A stretch of DNA of 64,000 bases from Candidatus Limnocylindrales bacterium (GTDB taxonomy: Bacteria; Chloroflexota; Limnocylindria; Limnocylindrales; CSP1-4), in assembly GCA_038325875.1 (NCBI GenBank), contig JBBQJL010000007.1:50-64049 (forward strand), read 5' to 3'. Under the pieces are notes generated by a model. It was given only the letters and a program-made list of their open reading frames with translations, made no database searches and was not told where the DNA came from. The position numbers and the translations under genes were made by a program. Of the stretch, positions 6,299 to 27,074 are shown in pieces; the stretch's first letter is position 1; each line of letters starts with the position of its first letter.

Positions 6299-8899
6299 TC
6301 AGAGCAGCGATTCCGGATCGACATCGACCGACCACGGGGCATCCAGCCCGCCGTCCAGGAGGTCGGCCGGCGCTCGACCGCGAAGGACCACGTTCCAACG
6401 CCAACGCCCGGCCCGGCGCCGGATGAAGGCCGGGGCCGGGCCGATCACCGTGACGGCAGACCCGCGCTCGATCGCTCGCGCCCGCAGCAGCTCGGCCGTG
6501 GCGCCGGCCTCACGCTCGGCCGCTTCGGGGTCGGGCAGCCCCACGGTCAGCTTGATCAGGCGCCCGAATGGCGGTGAACCGAAGCGGCGGCGGGCGTCCA
6601 GCTCCGCATCGTAGAACGCGGCCGGATCCGCTCCGACCACGGCCTGGATCGCGGGATGGTCCGGCTGGTAGCTCTGGATGATCGCCCGGCCCGGGCGCTC
6701 GCCGCGACCCGCCCGGCCGAACGCCTGGGCGAGCAGCTGGTAGGTCCGTTCGGCGGCGCGCTCGTCGGGCAGGTTGAGGGCCACGTCGGCGCTGACGACG
6801 CCGACCAGGGTCACCTCCGGGATGTCGAGACCCTTGGCCACAAGGCTGGTCCCGACCAGGACGTCGAGCCGCCCGTCGGTGAAGGCGTCGACGACCCGCT
6901 CGGCGGCGCCCTTTCGCTCGACGACGTCACGATCGAGGCGCCCCACCCGGAGACCGGGGAACCGCTCGCGGACCTCGCGCTCGACCCGCTCGGTGCCGCC
7001 GCCGAGGTAGCGGATCCGGGGGGACGCACAGGCGGGACAGCGGCTTGCCATCGGCGCGGCCGTGCCGCAATGGTGACAGCGCAGGGACCCACCACTGGCG
7101 TGATAGACCAGCGGTCGTTCGCACTCGGGGCAGGCCTGGACGTGGCCGCAGTCTCGACACATCACGACCGAGGCGGTGCCCCGCCGGTTGATGACCAGGA
7201 TCGCCCGCTCGCCATCCGAGGGGTCGAGCGCGACGAGGGCGGAAGCCAGCTCCGCCGAGATCAGGCCACGGTTCCCGGCGGCCAGCTCGGCGCGCAGGTC
7301 GACCACCTCGACCCTGGGCGGGAGGCCGCTCGGACGCTCGGGCAGGACGACTCGCCGATAGGTCCCGTCACGAGCATGACCCATCGTGTCGACCGCCGGC
7401 GTGGCACTCCCAAGGACGACCGCGGCACCGGCCAGCCGACCCAGTTCGAGAGCCACGTCGCGGGCCTGGATCCGGGGTGTCCGGTCGCTCTTGTAGGTGG
7501 CTTCGTGTTCCTCGTCGACCACCACCAGCCCGACGTCGGCCAGCGGCGCCACGACCGACAGCCGCGTCCCGACGACGATGTCGACCTCGCCGGCCCGGAT
7601 CCGTCGCCATTCGTCGGTCCGCTCCCCTGCCCCGACGGCCGAGTGGACCAGCGCGACCCGGGCGTCGAGGTCCGCCCGGAGGCGATCCACGAGCGGCATC
7701 GCCAGGGCGATCTCCGGGACGAGGACGAGGGCGGGCCGTCCGGCGGCGAGACAGTCCCGGATCGCTTCCGCATAGACTGCCGTCTTGCCGCCCCCGGTCA
7801 CCCCGTCCAACAGAAGCGGCGTCGGGTCCCGCTCGGCGATCGCGGTCTGGATCAGGGCGACTGCGTTCGCCTGCGGCTCGGTCAGGGTCACCCCACTCGG
7901 GCGGCCGCCACGCGGTCCGGCCGGTCGCGCTCCGAGTGGACGGCGCGGTCGTTCGCGGATCTCGGTGACCAGCAGGCCGCGGCGGACCAGACCGGCCAGG
8001 GCCGACGTCCCGTGGCGGCCCGCCAGGATGGCCGCCGGCAGGCCGTCCGGCCCCGCGTCCAGCTCGTCGAGCAGGGCGACCTGACGGGGACCGAGGGGGC
8101 GACCGGTCAGACGTCCACCGGCCCGGAGCGTCGCCGCCGCGGCGTGCCCAGCATCGGTCGACCGCGCCCAGCGCTCGTAGCGCGGACCGCCGGTCGCCGC
8201 CAGGAGCGTCCAGTCGAGGTCCAGCCGACCTCCCGCGGCCAGCCCACGCAACCGGCGCAGGAGCCCGGCTCGGCCCTCGGGTGCTGCCAGGTCACGGACC
8301 GGGCGCGGCCCGTCGGCCAGCTGGTCGAGGATGGCGCGATCGGCCGGCCCGAGCTCCTCACCGTCCGGGCCGCCGGCGATGGTGACCGGCAGCACGTCCG
8401 GTCGCGATTCGGCGACGAGCTCGAGCCGCTCGAGGATCCCTGGCGGGAGCATCGACCGGATGACGGTCCCGGGCGGGACCAGGTAGGTCGCGGCGATCCG
8501 CTCGGCGAGGGCGAGCGTCAGCGGCGGCAGGAGCGGGCCGTCGGCCCGGATCCGGTCGACGATCGGTCGGATCGACGACGCCGCCGGTCCGCTGCCGGGA
8601 TCGGTGGCGGCCCCGAGGACGACCCCGAGCGCCTGGCGCTTGCCGAAGTCCACCAGCACCGCCTCGCCGGGCTCGAGATCGGCCAGCCGGGGTGGGACGG
8701 CGTAGGTGTACCGCCGCGCTCCCGCGCCCGGAGCGTCGACGGCGACCTCGACCAGGCGCGGACCGACCTCGGAGGCCGGGGCTCCGCCGGCCACGGTCAC
8801 GCCGCTGACCCCGGCCTCGGACTCTCCCGCCAGACCGAGGTCGAGCTCGACCGAACTGTCGCTCCCGTGTCGTCCGCCGGTCGTGGTCATGGCCGCCAT
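6299..8899 (-). CDS. priA: Primosomal protein N' (replication restart helicase PriA)
   Basis: LLLDGVTGGGKTAVY Walker A, VVVDEEHE box, and the Cys-rich zinc region CRDCGHVQACPECERPLVYH...CHHCG...CPACAS. ATG at 8899 (MAAMTTT). Confidence 0.92.
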   Translation of the reverse strand: MAAMTTTGGRHGSDSSVELDLGLAGESEAGVSGVTVAGGAPASEVGPRLVEVAVDAPGAGARRYTYAVPPRLADLEPGEAVLVDFGKRQALGVVLGAATDPGSGPAASSIRPIVDRIRADGPLLPPLTLALAERIAATYLVPPGTVIRSMLPPGILERLELVAESRPDVLPVTIAGGPDGEELGPADRAILDQLADGPRPVRDLAAPEGRAGLLRRLRGLAAGGRLDLDWTLLAATGGPRYERWARSTDAGHAAAATLRAGGRLTGRPLGPRQVALLDELDAGPDGLPAAILAGRHGTSALAGLVRRGLLVTEIRERPRRPLGARPAGPRGGRPSGVTLTEPQANAVALIQTAIAERDPTPLLLDGVTGGGKTAVYAEAIRDCLAAGRPALVLVPEIALAMPLVDRLRADLDARVALVHSAVGAGERTDEWRRIRAGEVDIVVGTRLSVVAPLADVGLVVVDEEHEATYKSDRTPRIQARDVALELGRLAGAAVVLGSATPAVDTMGHARDGTYRRVVLPERPSGLPPRVEVVDLRAELAAGNRGLISAELASALVALDPSDGERAILVINRRGTASVVMCRDCGHVQACPECERPLVYHASGGSLRCHHCGTAAPMASRCPACASPRIRYLGGGTERVEREVRERFPGLRVGRLDRDVVERKGAAERVVDAFTDGRLDVLVGTSLVAKGLDIPEVTLVGVVSADVALNLPDERAAERTYQLLAQAFGRAGRGERPGRAIIQSYQPDHPAIQAVVGADPAAFYDAELDARRRFGSPPFGRLIKLTVGLPDPEAAEREAGATAELLRARAIERGSAVTVIGPAPAFIRRRAGRWRWNVVLRGRAPADLLDGGLDAPWSVDVDPESLL

Positions 8900-11178: not shown

Positions 11179-14100
11179 CTAGCCGTCGACGCGCCGAAGG
11201 GCGAGCCGGACCGTGCCGGCCTCCAGCTCGACCGACGCAGCCGCCCCGCCGCTCGGTCCCGGCCCAGCGCCGATCGAGCCGGCCAGGGTCTCGGCGGCGA
11301 CCGCGTCGAGGTAGGGCACGATGGGCTGCGGGAGTGGTTCGACCCAGACCTGGATCCGGTCGTCGAGGGCCAGCTCGGCCTCGCGGCGGAGGTCCTGGAT
11401 GGCGCGCTGGAGCTCGCGCGCATCGCCCTCCGCACGGAGCTCTGGCGTCAGCGAGGTGTCGATGACGACGACCAGGCCGTCATCGTGGGCGACCGCGGTG
11501 CCCGGCCGGGGCGACGCCAGGATCTCGACCTCGTCCGCGGCCAGGGTCACTCCGCCGAGGGTGACCGACCCGTCGGAGTGGATCTCGAACTCGCCGGCCC
11601 GCGCCGCCGCCATCACCGCCGGGACAGACCCGCCGAGCTTCTTGCCGATCTTGGGCAGGAGCGGCTTGATCCGCCGCTCGACCAGCTCGGACTCATCGCC
11701 GATGAGCTCGACCGACTTGACGTTGACCTCGGCGGCGAGGAGCGCCAGCAGAGCATCCCGCTCCGCGAGCTGGCCGCCGGGCAGCGCCAGCCACAGGCGC
11801 GCCAGCGGCTGGCGGACCTTCAGCCCGGCCTGACCGCGCAGCGTCCGGACGAGCTCGACGGCGCGGCGCGTGGTGGCCACCGCCGCCTCGAGCGGCAGGT
11901 CGCGCTGGGCCGCCGACTCGGCCGTCGGCCAGGCCGTCAGGTGGACGCTGTCCGGGGCCGTCGGGTCGTTCGCCCCGACCAGGTTGTCGTAGATCCCCTC
12001 GGTCATGAACGGCAGGATCGGGGCCAGCACCCTGGCCAGGGTGACCAGCGCAAGGTGGAGCGTGGCGAATGCCGCGTCGCGGTCGGCGGCATCGTCGGAT
12101 CGGGAGAAGCGCCGGCGGGAACGACGCAGATACCAGGTCGACAGGTCGTCGATCGCCTCGTCGATCGCCCGGGTGGCCCCCTCCGCGTCGTAGTCCCGCA
12201 GTCGATCCTCGGCCCTGGCCGCGACGCCGGCCATCCGCGACAGGATCCAGCGATCGAGCACCGGCCGATCCGACACTGCGGCAGCCCGGGACGTGTGCGC
12301 GTCCCAGCCGGCCAGTCGGGCGTAGGTCACGAAGAAGGCGTACACGTTCCACAGGATCAGCAAGCCGCGCCGCGCCTCGTCGGCGGCGTGCCAGCCGAAC
12401 AGGATGTTGTCGTCCGGGCGGGCGCTGGCGTACATCCAGCGCATGACGTCGACACCCATCCGGTCGGCCGCCTCGTCGAACTCGATCGAGTTGCCGGCGC
12501 TCTTGTGCATCGGCCGGCCGTCCTCGCCGAGCAGAGTCGCGAAGCCGAAGATCGTCCTGAACGGCGGCTCGCGCCGGAGGACCGTGCTCATCGCCAGCAT
12601 CGCGTAGAACCAGTTCCGGAACTTGCCCGGGCAGCTCTCGGTGATGAAGTCGGCCGGGAACCAGCGGGCCCAGAAGTCGGGATCCTCGCGATAGTGGATG
12701 GTCGAGAACGGAACGATCCCGGCATCGAGCCAGACGTTGCCGACATCGGGGATCCGCGAGATCGGCTGGCCGCACCCGGAGCAGGCGATCCGGACCGCAT
12801 CGATGTGCGGTCGATGGGGCGTGTGGCCGTCGAACGCGTCCCACCCGTCGACGGCCCGCTCGCGAAGCTCCTCGCGTCCGCCGATGACGGTCACCGCGCC
12901 GCACTCGCCACAGTCGTAGATCGGCAGGGCCAGGCCCCAGTAGCGCTTCTTGCTGATCATCCAGTCGTGCATGTCGTGGAGCCAGCGGATCTCCTGGTCG
13001 TAGCCGAACCCGGGTAGCCAGCGGATGTCGTCGACGACCTGCATGATCTGGTAGCGCAGGCTCCGCTCGACCTCGTCGGCGGTCAGCTCCTGGCGCGGTC
13101 GGTCGTAGACCTCGCCCATGCTGATGAACCACTCGTCGACCAGCCGGAAGATGAGCGGCGTACCGCACCGCCAGCAGTGCGGGTAGCGGTGGGTGATCGT
13201 CTCGAGCCGGTAGAACCGGTCGTGGTGGCGGAGGTGCTCGACGATCGGGTCGGCCACGTCGCGCACGTCGCGCCCGGTGTACGGCCCGAACCCGTCGAGG
13301 TAGATGCCCGATTCGTCGAGCGGGGCGATGACCGGCAGGCCGAGCAGCTTGCCCAGCGCGAAGTCCTCGGCGCCGCAGCCCGGAGCGATGTGGACGATCC
13401 CCGTGCCCTCCTCCTCGCCGACTTCGGTCCAGGACACGATCCGATGGCGGTAGGGCGTACCGGGTTCGTCGCGCGTACCGGCCGCGAACGCCGTCCGGAC
13501 GGCATGCAGGTCGTCGAACGGTCCGTCGTAGACCCAGCCGATGAGGTCGCTGCCGGGGCGCTCGTCGAGGACCTCGAACGGACCGACGAGCGCGCTCTTG
13601 AGCGTCCCACGGGCGACCCACAGGCGGTCGTCGCCCTGGCCGACGAGGACGTAGCGGAGATCCGGTCCGACCGCGGCGGCGACGTTCGAGGTGAGCGTCC
13701 ACGGTGTCGTCGTCCAGACCAGCAGCGCCTCACCGGGTCGATCGACCAGCGGGAAGCGCACGGTCAGGCCGGGGTCCTCGCGGTCGCGGTAGCCCTCGGT
13801 CATCTCGTGCTGACTCATGCCCGTCCCGCAGCGGGCGCACCAGGGCATCGTGTCGTGGCCCTTGTACAGCCAGCCGCGCCGATGGCATTCGGCCAGGAAC
13901 CCCCAGATCAGGTCGTTGTTCTCGTTGCTGAAGGTGAAGTAGCTCCCCCCGAGGTCCGGCATCCCGAGCCGCCCAATGAGCATCTCGACCGAGTCGGTGA
14001 CCGGCCCATCGGGGCCGTCGATGGTGGTGACCTGGGCCGGGTCGTCGGCCAGCAGGTCGCGCAGCCGGCGCAGCTCCTGCGGGTCGTTCCAGTCCATCCA

Positions 14101-23285: not shown

Positions 23286-23607
23286 ACCGTGAGTGGTCGG
23301 AATTGGCGTCCGCAAGAGTGAGAGGGTGCTCGAAACGTGCTCTCGGAGCCTCGACCGAGCGTGCTCGACACCGTTCCCACCACTCCCGGTGGCGCGGTGC
23401 CGGCTCGTGAGAGTGCGCGCCGCGTCATACGGCCGGGGGCGGTGCTCTGGGCCGTCAGCCTCTCCGGCGGGCCATTGGCGGCCGGAGAGCACGCCCAGCA
23501 GCCCTGCCACCGGCGCGAATCCGGTGGATCTGGCAGGCCGGATGGTGATCCGGACCGCCGGGGGCGGCAGGGAGCGAGGCGAGGCTCGGCGGACTCCGGC
23601 GTCGATC

Positions 23608-23671
23608 GCAGGCGCGGATCGCGGCGGGGGTCCGGATCGCGGCGCAGGCGCGGATCGCGGCGGGGGTCCGG
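23608..23671. repeat. 36-nt period direct repeat (gcaggcgcggatcgcggcgggggtccgg x2)
   Basis: Identical 28-mers at 23608 and 23644, about 70 nt upstream of the cpaE-like start. Confidence 0.8.
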
Positions 23672-23739
23672 CCCCGGGTCGTGGCGGGCCCGATGTATCC
23701 TCACCTGCGACCGACATCCGCCGCCCACCCGGAGACGAC

Positions 23740-24963
23740 GTGCCCGCCAGTTCAATCCTGCTTCTCGATACCGATGCCCTGGCCGGCGAGGCCATTCGGA
23801 CCGTGCTGACCGGGGTCGGCTATGCGGTCGACACCGTGACCGGCGTCGCAGAGGCGATCCAGGTCGCCGCCGATCACAGCTTGGTCATCATCGACGTGAC
23901 CGGCCCGACCACGACGCCGGCCGACGTCTGCCGCGAGATCCGGGGAACGCCGAGCCTGGCGGCCGTCCCGGTCCTGTGCATGTCCGAGGCGGACGACGTC
24001 GAGGAGCGGATCCGCTTCCTGGAGGCCGGGGCGGATGACGTCGTGGCCAAGCCATTCGACCGACGCGAGCTCGAGGCCCGGGTCGAGGCCCTCCTCGTCC
24101 GCTTCCAGCGCTCGCGCGGTGCCGTTTCGGCCATCGGCGGCAGCCTGTTCGAGCAGCCCCGTCGGATGGTCGCGGTGTACAGCCCCAAGGGCGGCGTCGG
24201 GACCACCACCATCGCGGTCAACGTCGCGGTGGCCCACGCCGTCTCGCGCCCCGGACGCGTCCTCATCGTCGATCTCGACCTGCAGTTCGGCCAGGTCGCC
24301 ACCCACCTCAACATCTTCCCTCGCCAAACGGTGGCGGACCTGGCCCGTGACGAGCAGTCCCAGCGCGAGCCCGAGCTGCTCCGGACCTATACCAGCCGCC
24401 ACGAGGCGTCCGGGCTGGACGTCCTTGCCGCGCCGGGTTCGCCGGAGCTGGCCGAACTGGTCACCGCCGCCCACGTCGAGCGGATCCTCGAGACGGCCCT
24501 GCTGGCGTACGAGGCGGTCGTTGTCGATGCCGGTTCGACCCTCGACGAGCGGTCGCTCGCGGCCCTCGAGGGAGCCGAGGTGGTCCTCCTGCCGGTCTAC
24601 CCCGAGATCTCCGCGCTCAAGGCCGTCCACTCGTTCCTTGACTTCGTGAACGAGGCCGGCTCGATCGCGTCGAAGACCACGTTCGTGCTCAACAGCATGT
24701 TCGCCAAAGAGCTCCTGAAGATGCGCGATGTCGAAAGCGGGCTCGGTGCCAAAGTCTCGCTGACCCTGCCCTACGACCCGCTCCTGTACCTGAAGGCTGT
24801 CAACGAGGGCAACCCGGTGGTCATCGGAGCGGCCCGGACGCCGGTCGCCGCCGCCATGACGAGGCTGGCCACGGCCGCCTTCGGCAGCGCGGCTGCACAG
24901 GCGAAGACTCCCGCCGACGAGAAGAAGTCACGCGGCCTGGGCGGCCTGCTCAAGCGCACCTGA
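23740..24963 (+). CDS. Response-regulator receiver domain fused to TadZ/CpaE-like ParA/MinD-family ATPase
   Basis: REC: ILLLDTD...LVIIDV...CMSEADD...VVAKPF. ATPase: VAVYSPKGGVGTTTIAVN (deviant Walker A without the second Lys) and VVVDAG. GTG at 23740 is preceded by GGAGA; the track N-terminal 149 aa are not coding-like. Confidence 0.85.
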   Translation: MPASSILLLDTDALAGEAIRTVLTGVGYAVDTVTGVAEAIQVAADHSLVIIDVTGPTTTPADVCREIRGTPSLAAVPVLCMSEADDVEERIRFLEAGADDVVAKPFDRRELEARVEALLVRFQRSRGAVSAIGGSLFEQPRRMVAVYSPKGGVGTTTIAVNVAVAHAVSRPGRVLIVDLDLQFGQVATHLNIFPRQTVADLARDEQSQREPELLRTYTSRHEASGLDVLAAPGSPELAELVTAAHVERILETALLAYEAVVVDAGSTLDERSLAALEGAEVVLLPVYPEISALKAVHSFLDFVNEAGSIASKTTFVLNSMFAKELLKMRDVESGLGAKVSLTLPYDPLLYLKAVNEGNPVVIGAARTPVAAAMTRLATAAFGSAAAQAKTPADEKKSRGLGGLLKRT

Positions 24964-25111
24964 GCGGCGGCTCGAGTGCGCCGCATGCACGCGCAACGGT
25001 CCACGGCGAAGGTACGGCTTGACGCCGGGGGCATGCCCGACCAAGGTGAGGCACTCGGGCCCCGCAGCTGACTCCGAAGGCAACGACGCTCGACCGGCAC
25101 CGGTGACCATC

Positions 25112-25915
25112 ATGCGTCGTTCCCTCGTCATCCTGCTCGCAGGCGGGCTGCTGCTCCTGGCCTCACTCTCGCTCGCCAGCGTGGCCACCGCGGCGACGAT
25201 CGCCCCGACCACGACCTGCAGCAACGGTGTCGGCAACACGGGTGGCCTCGGTCGGATCTGCCGGGTCACCATCGTCAACACGATCACGGCCAGCGGCGGA
25301 TCAGCCAGGGTCACCGTGCGCGAGTGTCACGGCGCCGCGGGCAACCCACAGGCGGCCTGCACGACCAGGACGATGATCCTGGGAAAGCCGGTCAGCGTGG
25401 TCAATCAGTGCAACGACTCGATCAACAGCGGCGGCGGCACCCTCCGCTGCAGCGTCAAGGTCACCAACCTGTTCATCGGCCTCAGTCCGGGCTCGACGGC
25501 CGCCACGGTCAACCAGTGCGTCGGTTCCGGCGGCGGGATCACCACCGGCTGTGATCCCTTCCCGGCAACCACGACCGGGGCGGCGATCACGCAGTGCAAT
25601 GGCTCGGCCAACGGCGGGACCCTGGTCGGTCTCACCTGCACGGCGACCGGCAAGAAGTCTTCGGCACACGGCGTCCGGATCAACCAATGCAACGGTTCGG
25701 CCAACGGTGGCGGGGCGCTGGTCATCTGCTCCGCCAGCATCACCAACAGAACGGTGTCTTCCACGACGCCCACGATCCCGCCGACGTCCACGCTGGCGGC
25801 GGCCGACGTCCCCCGATCCGGACCGTCCCCATTGGTCTTCGTCGCGATCTTCCTCATCGCCTTTGTCGTCTTCGTCGCCGGCGGCCGAACGAGGCGGGCG
25901 ACCCGCGCCCGCTGA
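25112..25915 (+). CDS. Secreted Cys-rich repeat protein with C-terminal TM anchor / sorting-like signal
   Basis: Signal peptide MRRSLVILLAGGLLLLASLSLASVATA. Twelve Cys in six pairs form repeats such as NQCNGSANGGGALVICSASITN. The C-terminus is PPTST..PRSG..hydrophobic helix..RTRRATRAR. GC3 is high. Confidence 0.8.
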   Translation: MRRSLVILLAGGLLLLASLSLASVATAATIAPTTTCSNGVGNTGGLGRICRVTIVNTITASGGSARVTVRECHGAAGNPQAACTTRTMILGKPVSVVNQCNDSINSGGGTLRCSVKVTNLFIGLSPGSTAATVNQCVGSGGGITTGCDPFPATTTGAAITQCNGSANGGTLVGLTCTATGKKSSAHGVRINQCNGSANGGGALVICSASITNRTVSSTTPTIPPTSTLAAADVPRSGPSPLVFVAIFLIAFVVFVAGGRTRRATRAR

Positions 25916-25931
25916 ACCCGTCCTCTCCGCC

Positions 25932-26020
25932 GCGGGTCCGTGGTGCCGAAGGTGGGGTTCGAACCCACACGACCCTTGCGAGTCAGCGGAGTTTAAGTCC
26001 GCCGCGTCTGCCGGTTCCGC
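25932..26020 (-). tRNA. tRNA-Leu(UAA), copy A (A37)
   Basis: Manual cloverleaf gives a 7-bp acceptor gccgaag/cttcggc, anticodon arm gcgga-CUUAAAC-tccgc, a long variable arm, a GGTTCGAA T-loop, and an encoded CCA. Confidence 0.8.
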
Positions 26021-26051
26021 CACTTCGGCCGACGCAAGGGTAGCGCCTGGC

Positions 26052-26249
26052 TCAGACCGACTTGCCGACCGTGCGTACTCGGCGAGGCCTGGGTCGCCGA
26101 CGCGACAGCTCCCCGAATGCGAAGAACGCGACGACGCCGGCCAGGAGCGGCAGGACCGGGATCGGGGCATCTGCCCGACCGGATCGGCCGACGCTGTCGG
26201 TGCTCGTCGGCGGCATCGTCGTGATCTCGATCGAGCTCAGGACGAACAT
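26052..26249 (-). pseudogene. Chimeric small ORF: C-terminal fragment of the Cys-rich-repeat family fused to an out-of-frame flp remnant
   Basis: It encodes ...IEITTMPPTSTDSVGRSGRADAPIPVLPLLAGVVAFFAFGELSRRRPRPRRVRTVGKSV. The last 38 nt plus 26073-26089 match the flp 3' end and the GLAEYA codons, with a 79-nt deletion relative to flp at 26661-26846. Confidence 0.5.
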
Positions 26250-26491
26250 CCGCCGGCACTTGGTGATCGCCTGCCGGGTCGGGACCGGTCCACCGGCGGC
26301 CGCAATTCTGGTGGGAGTCGCGAGTCTGCGAGGCCTGTCAGCCATGATGCGGATGATCGCATGAGGGTGGCGGGGTTCAATCTGGTCCGGGTTCAAGTCA
26401 GCCGAGTCGCCGCGAGACGCACGATCAACTCGGGCGCCTGCTCGTGCCCGCTCCCCCGTCCTCGGGCGTCTTGCCGGCTACGACACAGGAA

Positions 26492-26520
26492 GGCTCCCTC
26501 GGGCCTGGCCCGCGGGAGCC
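26492..26520 (-). terminator. Candidate hairpin downstream of tRNA-Leu copy B
   Basis: A 7-bp stem GGCTCCC/GGGAGCC with a 15-nt loop. The U-tract is weak (ttcctgtgt). Confidence 0.25.
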
Positions 26521-26549
26521 TCTGAACTTAGTGTCGATGCGCCGTCTCG

Positions 26550-26638
26550 TGGTGCCGAAGGTGGGGTTCGAACCCACACGGCCCTTACGGGTCAGCGGAG
26601 CTTAAGTCCGCCGCGTCGGCCGATTCCGCCACTTCGGC
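26550..26638 (-). tRNA. tRNA-Leu(UAA), copy B (G37)
   Basis: Same cloverleaf as copy A, with anticodon loop CUUAAGC and about 10 substitutions relative to copy A. CCA is encoded. Confidence 0.85.
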
Positions 26639-26660
26639 CGACGCGAGGGTAGCGCCTGGC

Positions 26661-26846
26661 TCAGACGGACTTGCCGACCGTGCTCAGGATCTTGCTGACC
26701 TGGCCACCCAGGAACAGCAGGGCGATGATGGCGACGATCGCGATGAGCGCGAGGATGAGCGCGTACTCGGCGAGACCTTGACCGTCCTGATCGTCCCGAT
26801 CCAGGGCGATCTGGCTGCGTACGTATAGTCCGAGAAGGACCGACAT
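26661..26846 (-). CDS. flp: Flp/Fap family type IVb (Tad) pilin precursor
   Basis: 61 aa: a polar leader, then the G-QGLAEY Flp motif and the hydrophobic stretch ALILALIAIVAIIALLFLGG. A GGAG SD lies 8-11 nt upstream of the ATG. Confidence 0.85.
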   Translation of the reverse strand: MSVLLGLYVRSQIALDRDDQDGQGLAEYALILALIAIVAIIALLFLGGQVSKILSTVGKSV

Positions 26847-27074
26847 GCCGTTCTCCGTTCGTCTTGCCCGCCGATACGGCGGATGATGATGGCGTTCGCC
26901 GTGACCGGGATCGCGACGGACGACGCGGGCGGATACCCACCCTCGACGCAGGATCAGGATGGCAGCCCGGCGAGCCGCTCACGAGAGACCCGATGGTATG
27001 AGGGCGCCTACTGCAAACGTACTAGCAGACGCACCAGCTGCCGCCGCCCTTCGAGCGAGGACCAGCGGGGAGTG

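Follow-up and report, generated by a model that had tools for sequence, protein, structure and literature searches.

The window analysed here, i.e., the whole stretch of 64,000 nucleotides (64 kb) of DNA under consideration, lies in contig C7 (65.6 kb) of a metagenome-assembled genome (MAG) of Candidatus Limnocylindrales bacterium, from the phylum Chloroflexota; this MAG comprises 2.99 Mb in 89 contigs and is 86.6% complete, with 4.9% contamination. The names carried by homologues, one of them in the same-genus genome G001, point to Chloroflexota and Limnocylindria. The window carries two complete genes for tRNA-Leu(UAA), both of them preceded by the 3' end of the pilin gene flp: (i) copy B, which stands behind an intact flp; and (ii) copy A, which stands behind a relic of that gene. 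Between the two copies there are 457 nt of orphan DNA, hereafter interval X. This arrangement is best explained by general or illegitimate recombination, anchored by homology on one side only, which would have joined two flp-tRNA units and would not be the work of an integrase; the probability assigned to this reading is roughly 0.5. In any case, the locus bears a recombination scar of an ordinary kind, situated at a tRNA hot spot, and no new mechanism or element is involved.

The repeat was detected by a repeat search of the 64-kb window, and the locus was compared with 22 related loci, corresponding to 19 related genomes and 3 metagenome contigs (referred to by labels such as G005 or L072). 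The features of the locus are the following:

25939..26074, minus strand: repeat copy A, made up of the tRNA plus 2 nt, the 22-nt spacer and the last 23 nt of flp (alignment of copies A and B)
26548..26683, minus strand: repeat copy B, 136 nt, 94% identical to copy A
25941..26029, minus strand: tRNA-Leu(UAA) of copy A, the canonical allele (ARAGORN; Rfam tRNA, 56.7 bits; 89/89 identical to G005, G016, G015 and L072)
26550..26638, minus strand: tRNA-Leu(UAA) of copy B, apparently a drifted allele (ARAGORN; Rfam tRNA, 56.3 bits; C16U, A20aC and A37G private)
26037..26042, minus strand: TACCCT, which resembles a -10 box and is placed 7 nt upstream of tRNA(A); copy B has its counterpart at 26646-26651
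26052..26090, minus strand: flp relic of copy A, in which G-LAEYA (18 nt, 26073-26090) is joined to the last 23 nt of the gene (TVGKSV plus stop, 26052-26074)
26091..26547, minus strand: orphan interval X, 457 nt, with a hairpin, a noncoding stretch and then a 3' gene fragment (fold and GC3 profile)
26661..26846, minus strand: intact flp(B), of the 'dn' leader type described below, 61 aa, with the G/LAEYA (G/xxxxEY) processing motif and the hydrophobic core
26684..26762, minus strand: 79-nt stretch of flp(B) absent from copy A (hydrophobic core), its position being ambiguous by the 2-nt GC
26847..27074, minus strand: native upstream region of flp(B), up to tRNA-Cys, including the conserved hairpin CTAGTACGTTTGCAGTAG at 27008-27025

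The direct repeat comprises 136 nt (25939-26074 versus 26548-26683) at 94% identity, with a spacing of 609 nt, and contains the 3' end of flp, the spacer and the complete 89-nt tRNA-Leu(UAA). A direct duplication of this block had been proposed in the initial annotation of the sequence, and both the repeat and the two ARAGORN calls of 89 nt bear it out. Some of its measures have to be corrected: homology begins at 25939 and not at 25930; the start-to-start distance between the copies is 609 nt and not 618 nt; and the spacer from the flp stop codon to the tRNA has 22 nt in both copies and not 31 nt. Both tRNAs show a cloverleaf, a long variable arm and the UAA anticodon, and their scores exceed the Rfam gathering score for tRNA (29 bits). 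Minimum-free-energy folds of the two tRNAs gave no cloverleaf and were not used. The two copies share no exact run longer than the 33 nt found at the tRNA 3' end. Nevertheless, similarity is not confined to the tRNA, a possibility that had been raised as a check on the duplication: it continues for at least 47 nt further upstream, through the spacer and into flp. At the other end, the repeat stops 2 nt past the tRNA CCA, a boundary which is not specific, since conservation between genomes is limited by the same boundary. No homology was found past either end of the repeat, local alignments of the flanks scoring within those of shuffled sequences. The two copies have the same orientation, head-to-tail, with one novel junction, between X and the GLAEYA codons, at 26090/26091.

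A second direct match, of 18 nt (17/18 identical), links 26073-26090 with 26761-26778 at a spacing of 688 nt, i.e., 609 + 79. Even when up to 2 mismatches are allowed, this GLAEYA-coding 18-mer matches nowhere else in the 64-kb window, where no chance match would be expected. The earlier proposal that copy A is flp minus 79 nt of its hydrophobic core, frameshifted and with GC microhomology at the junction, is thus upheld by the difference between the two spacings (688 - 609 = 79). As 79 nt equal 26x3+1, the deletion causes a frameshift, and, on reading the sequence, the 2-nt GC can be attributed to either side of the junction. The relic, which is non-functional, lacks the leader and the hydrophobic core and is out of frame. 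The 28-nt deletion junction of copy A has no match in metagenome or genome collections.

Regarding the relatives, tRNA-Leu(UAA) is single at all 22 related loci, and the duplicated arrangement is in no other record found. At 21/22 of these loci, a conserved tRNA-Phe-Gly-Gln-Cys cluster precedes the gene; the exception is G014, in whose fetched stretch no such cluster is seen. The gap between the Cys and Leu tRNAs measures 69 to 3,373 nt in relatives, and only in one clade (the window, G005, G016, G015, G011, G006, L069, L071 and L072) does it contain flp. Two leader types of flp can be distinguished: (i) 'up', MLFRVHVF...RGQ followed by GLAEYAL; and (ii) 'dn', M...LDRDDQDGQ followed by GLAEYAL, which abuts the tRNA. 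Both types are intact in G006 and L071. In the G005 group and L072, 'up' has been kept while 'dn' has decayed to a 3' relic of ~40 nt, and a ~330-nt deletion has brought the hairpin CTAGTRCGTYTGCACTAG beside this relic. In G011 the relic is longer and has small internal deletions, and in L069 the leader region is absent. Given these independent deletions (G005 group and L072, G011, L069), deletional decay is usual at the locus; their sequences indicate that erosion of the tRNA-adjacent flp is recurrent and that its last ~40 nt always persist. On its left flank, copy B is collinear with G006 and L071 as regards the hairpin, the upstream region and the 'dn' leader, and positions 26547-27024 of the window are collinear with G006 at 80%. 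According to the identity of flanking genes (85-87%), the window, G006 and the G005 group are about equidistant. A closer relative was sought via HtpX: the nearest homologue outside the genome is 87% identical, and the three extra loci recovered in this way are all single-tRNA.

The intact flp(B) resembles the Flp/Fap pilins of Tad pili (PF04964) in its G/xxxxEY motif, its hydrophobic core and its size, but its match to Pfam Flp_Fap (E 3e-5, 24.2 bits) is under the gathering cut-off of 32.2, and copy A has only the non-functional relic. At full length, flp(B) is 80% identical to the tRNA-adjacent flp of G006 and L071. Its mature part is 89-91% identical to the 'up' genes versus 81% to the tRNA-adjacent flp of G006, which suggests conversion between paralogues. 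A search of public assemblies for exact matches to flp(B) gave no record. Across the clade, the mature pilin sequence is nearly identical in 'up' and 'dn' genes, and the leaders are of two unrelated types.

A box of the form TANNNT (mostly TA[CG][CG]CT: TACCCT, TACGCT, TAGGCT) is present 13-16 nt upstream of the tRNA 5' end in 23/24 tRNA-Leu(UAA) copies, including both copies of the window, and is located in the spacer that follows the stop codon of flp. This box is likely the -10 element of the tRNA. The retention of the flp tail and the spacer in relatives would probably be due to the location of this putative -10 box in the spacer, and its presence in both window copies would make each of them a promoter-bearing gene.

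Interval X begins with a strong hairpin, located ~25 nt after tRNA(B) (about 26487-26521 in the fold) and followed by ~240 nt without coding signal and, finally, by a high-GC3 coding signal of ~220 nt on the minus strand (about 26310-26091), which corresponds to a 3' gene fragment. The product of this fragment has a C-terminal PPTST motif and a transmembrane (TM) helix; its Arg-rich tail continues into the flp relic. No relatives of X were found in genome, metagenome, phage or plasmid collections or in its own genome, and the search of 151 family genomes gave weak tail-only matches and no relative. Its best match in its own genome (contig C4) was rejected as a spurious, out-of-frame open reading frame (ORF). 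That X is orphan everywhere searched is as expected for the hypervariable DNA downstream of a tRNA. The initial annotation had seen at the upstream junction of copy A a fragment of the Cys-rich family whose local member is encoded at 25019-25915. The existence of a coding fragment is backed by the GC3 signal, and a profile of the C-terminal 130 aa of the family matches it with 4.2 bits (E 0.002 for one sequence), in the PPTST-TM-Arg tail only. X as a paralogue of the Cys-rich gene was rejected on statistical grounds, there being no BLASTP alignment and the DNA alignment score lying within the shuffles, so that the proposed Cys-rich fragment has weak support. The likeness of X to this family, as far as these comparisons go, is architectural only.

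When an integrase duplicates an att site in a tRNA gene, only the 3' part of the tRNA is repeated, so that an intact tRNA stands together with a partial copy. Tandem accretion and deletional decay are also known for islands integrated at tRNA genes. Integration of islands and prophages at tRNA 3' ends, between attL and attR direct repeats, is exemplified in the reference list of PMC5812530, among others by Pavlovic et al. (2004) and by NBU1 at a Leu-tRNA. The locus studied here is of this kind. The sequence directly after tRNA-Leu(UAA) differs in every genome compared. In G005, a perfect repeat of 47 nt from the tRNA 3' end marks the limits of an islet of 3.2 kb (L027, G005:C3 6626-9940; in sense orientation, tRNA at 8062-8150 and repeat at 11333-11379); this islet carries orphan WapI-like and Imm1 immunity ORFs and lacks an integrase. 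G016 provides the corresponding empty site. In G011 (L030, G011:C10), a degenerate 30-nt copy of the tRNA 3' end (90%) lies ~2.9 kb downstream, just before a cpaE-like gene, and is probably an older att remnant. Taken together, the repeat-bounded islet of G005, the empty site of G016, the repeat of G011 and the variability of the flank indicate that the 3' end of tRNA-Leu(UAA) is a genuine att site and insertion hot spot in the genus.

The window repeat shares with these islets, of 3 kb and with tRNA 3'-end repeats of 47 and 30 nt in G005 and G011, the kind of locus and the fact that it ends at the tRNA 3' end. In contrast to them, it holds the whole tRNA, the spacer with its putative promoter and part of flp, with 457 nt between the copies and no integrase. 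An integrase-type att duplication was therefore rejected for this repeat: both tRNAs are complete and the repeat reaches at least 47 nt upstream into flp. Further grounds for discarding an att scar are the mere 457 nt that separate the copies and the contig itself, where searches with PF00589 and PF00239 detected no tyrosine or serine recombinase on C7. The absence of an integrase, already reported in the initial annotation, is confirmed for the contig; of its suggestion that the locus might be the scar of a recombination or integration event at a tRNA gene, the recombination scar is retained and the integrase origin is not supported. Elsewhere in its own genome, there is neither another partial tRNA-Leu copy nor a matching att core beside an integrase.

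As regards the two tRNA copies, A and B differ at 8 sites, and at 0/8 of these does A have a private state. Copy B has 4 private states after adding L071 to the comparison, 3 of them in the tRNA: its U16, C20a and G37 occur in none of the loci of the 22 relatives, while copy A keeps C16, A20a and A37. The states of copy B in the variable arm occur in G006, L069 or L071. Outside the tRNA, copy B has changed twice, by TCG>TCC, which is synonymous, and by T>C in the spacer. Within its own genome, A37 is found in the UUG-reading tRNA-Leu(CAA) genes, and G37 only in CUN readers. From these comparisons, copy A is the canonical one, and copy B, behind the intact flp, carries all the polarisable changes and appears to have drifted. 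At a GC content of 70.8%, TTA amounts to 68 codons in 1,565 long high-GC3 ORFs, i.e., 0.1% of the Leu codons, with 66 ORFs containing one. In the high-GC genome of Streptomyces, the very rare TTA codon is read by a single tRNA-Leu(UAA), the product of bldA. By analogy, the tRNA-Leu(UAA) of the window can be regarded as a bldA-like tRNA in low demand: it has the same anticodon and TTA is very rare in its genome. Unlike bldA, it belongs to a Limnocylindria-like MAG from the Chloroflexota and is duplicated, and any regulatory role of it would be hypothetical. The drift of one of the copies would follow from redundancy at such a low TTA demand.

According to the preferred reading, a second allele, consisting of an intact tRNA-adjacent flp, the tRNA and the donor's own downstream DNA (which would be X), recombined by homology on the side of the tRNA cluster, and an illegitimate junction would have linked its other end to the interior of the resident flp, where the codons of the mature pilin start. 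Such an event would produce the observed structure in a single step, namely two tandem tRNA units separated by X. Once truncated, the resident flp, now in copy A, would have lost a further 79 nt at the GC microhomology, later or possibly in the same event, and its relic would survive only as the carrier of the tRNA(A) promoter region. As the tRNA of a very rare codon would then have two genes, each with its promoter, one of them would be redundant, and A would stay canonical while B drifts. Homology-facilitated illegitimate recombination, or additive integration, has been established by transformation studies in Acinetobacter and Streptococcus. The term homology-facilitated illegitimate recombination is discussed in PMC6382021. 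The arrangement in the window resembles the outcome of this process in several respects: one side is collinear and homologous, the other junction is without homology and inside a resident gene, foreign DNA would have been added and the resident gene truncated. It departs from it in that the event is deduced from a single genome.

Several points weigh against this reading. Neither the donor allele nor a closer relative was found, so the direction of the event and its single-event nature are presumed. The 5' truncation of the X fragment and the 79-nt deletion are separate events under any model. The private changes of B would be odd if B had been the donor's sole copy and, hence, they must postdate the merger. 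The contig comes from a MAG which is 86.6% complete and has 4.9% contamination. Finally, A and B are only 2/45 apart in the 3' end of flp plus the spacer, whereas either of them differs from G006 at 5-7/45, which also fits a recent in-situ duplication or gene conversion. In that case, unequal or illegitimate crossing-over between the 3' end of the downstream gene and the GLAEYA region of flp would have generated a tandem duplication, followed by loss of the second X, the 79-nt deletion and relaxed selection on one tRNA. This is a possible rather than a probable course of events. It agrees with the head-to-tail arrangement and with the closeness of A and B just mentioned; besides, the variable-arm sites are homoplastic among relatives, so the states that B shares with G006 need not mean a foreign origin. 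But there is no X-like second copy downstream of tRNA(A), the local alignment scoring within shuffles, and at least one more precise deletion or replacement at the tRNA 3' end would be needed; also, all polarisable changes would have to fall on B, with none on the neutral relic of A. In short, the lack of a second X after tRNA(A) and of homology beyond the repeat ends means that a plain tandem duplication requires extra events. Had the duplication been ancient, i.e., prior to the split of the window lineage, G006 and the G005 group, with one unit lost elsewhere by recombination between the repeats, it would account for the derived U49 that tRNA(A) shares with the G005 group and for the C49 and C58 that tRNA(B) shares with G006 and L069, the three lineages being about equidistant. 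Such a history is highly improbable: it requires at least 3 independent losses, no trace of X is seen in any relative, and the neutral divergence between A and B (~4-6%) falls short of the 11-16% that separates the lineages over this stretch, a shortfall that would call for gene conversion.

The use of the tRNA-Leu(UAA) 3' end as an att site in the genus (G005, G016, G011) brings to mind a decayed tRNA-targeting integrative element which, by aberrant excision in a previous host, would have captured the flp relic, the spacer and the tRNA, would have integrated at the resident tRNA-Leu by means of an integrase or by Campbell-type homologous recombination, and would afterwards have lost its interior and its integrase, leaving X. 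The position of the 33-nt exact run at the tRNA 3' end and the end of the repeat 2 nt after CCA would suit this explanation, which is, in any case, unlikely: the repeat spans the whole tRNA plus at least 47 nt upstream, versus 3' repeats of 30-47 nt in relatives; the contig has no recombinase and X has no similarity to phages, plasmids or other elements; and the CG after CCA is also kept in several single-copy relatives, so that the boundary is not diagnostic. Regarding the assembly, the number of contigs of the MAG (89), its 4.9% contamination and the uniqueness of the arrangement among the records found could point to an artefact in which two strain variants of the locus were joined in tandem. 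An artefact of this type is very unlikely, considering that the 33-nt exact run is shorter than the final k-mers of the usual metagenome assemblers, that X is unique sequence and real reads would be needed to join it to both units, and that the locus is placed in the interior of a 65.6-kb contig, where synteny is conserved to its left and to its right.

A functional interpretation of the pair was considered too, namely that copy B has been kept as a second tRNA-Leu(UAA) with a specialised role, marked by G37 and by its D-loop changes; being transcribed from or with the intact pilin gene, it would couple TTA decoding to flp expression and form a bldA-like regulatory pair with copy A. This interpretation is given a very low probability. 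The pair formed by a canonical and an apparently drifted version of a rare-codon tRNA could, in turn, serve to find out whether UUA decoding depends on A37 and on the D-loop positions. More generally, this case documents the evolution of a tRNA-flank hot spot in an uncultured high-GC lineage: the same tRNA-Leu(UAA) is a classical island att site in two relatives and the seat of a whole-gene duplication here, and the adjacent pilin gene has been eroded by independent deletions in at least 4 lineages, its last ~40 nt persisting, likely as the carrier of the tRNA promoter.

The variable segment at the 3' flank of the tRNA holds, in the window, a Cys-rich surface-protein gene:

25019..25915, plus strand: Cys-rich repeat surface-protein gene (ORF), accessory cargo between the 3' end of tRNA-Leu(A) and the cpaE/tadZ-like gene

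Its product has no Pfam or NCBIfam match. The gene is present in 26/151 family genomes, with up to 72-75% identity in other genera; in the same genus, it was found only in G001 (46% identity) among the five genomes sampled in that search. This patchy spread suggests horizontal transfer. No tRNA lies near the Cys-rich homologues at 11/11 of the sites inspected, and no linkage to cpaE was seen either. The C-terminus of family members is made up of a PPT[SD]T motif, a TM helix and a basic tail. The variable segment is adjoined, at 23293-24963 of the window, by a gene for a TadZ/CpaE-like ParA ATPase with a full receiver domain; across the six genomes of the clade that were compared, this gene forms a conserved anchor on the right-hand side of the hot spot.

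Upstream of the tRNA-adjacent flp, the hairpin motif CTAGTRCGTYTGCACTAG (27008-27025 in the window) is kept in G006, the G005 group, G011, L069 and L072, and survives even where the tRNA-adjacent flp has been deleted; it may serve as an operator or terminate transcription of the upstream flp. Four more flp matches occur in the same genome (C62:7533-7691, C62:8043-8171, C32:14208-14339 and C10:21819-21953). With regard to other leucine tRNAs, the genome contains two different tRNA-Leu(CAA) genes on separate small contigs (C69:3653-3739 and C89:646-731), possibly derived from the 4.9% contamination, and a 93-nt ARAGORN call of 'tRNA-Leu(cag)' at C38:4060-4152 looks like a false positive.

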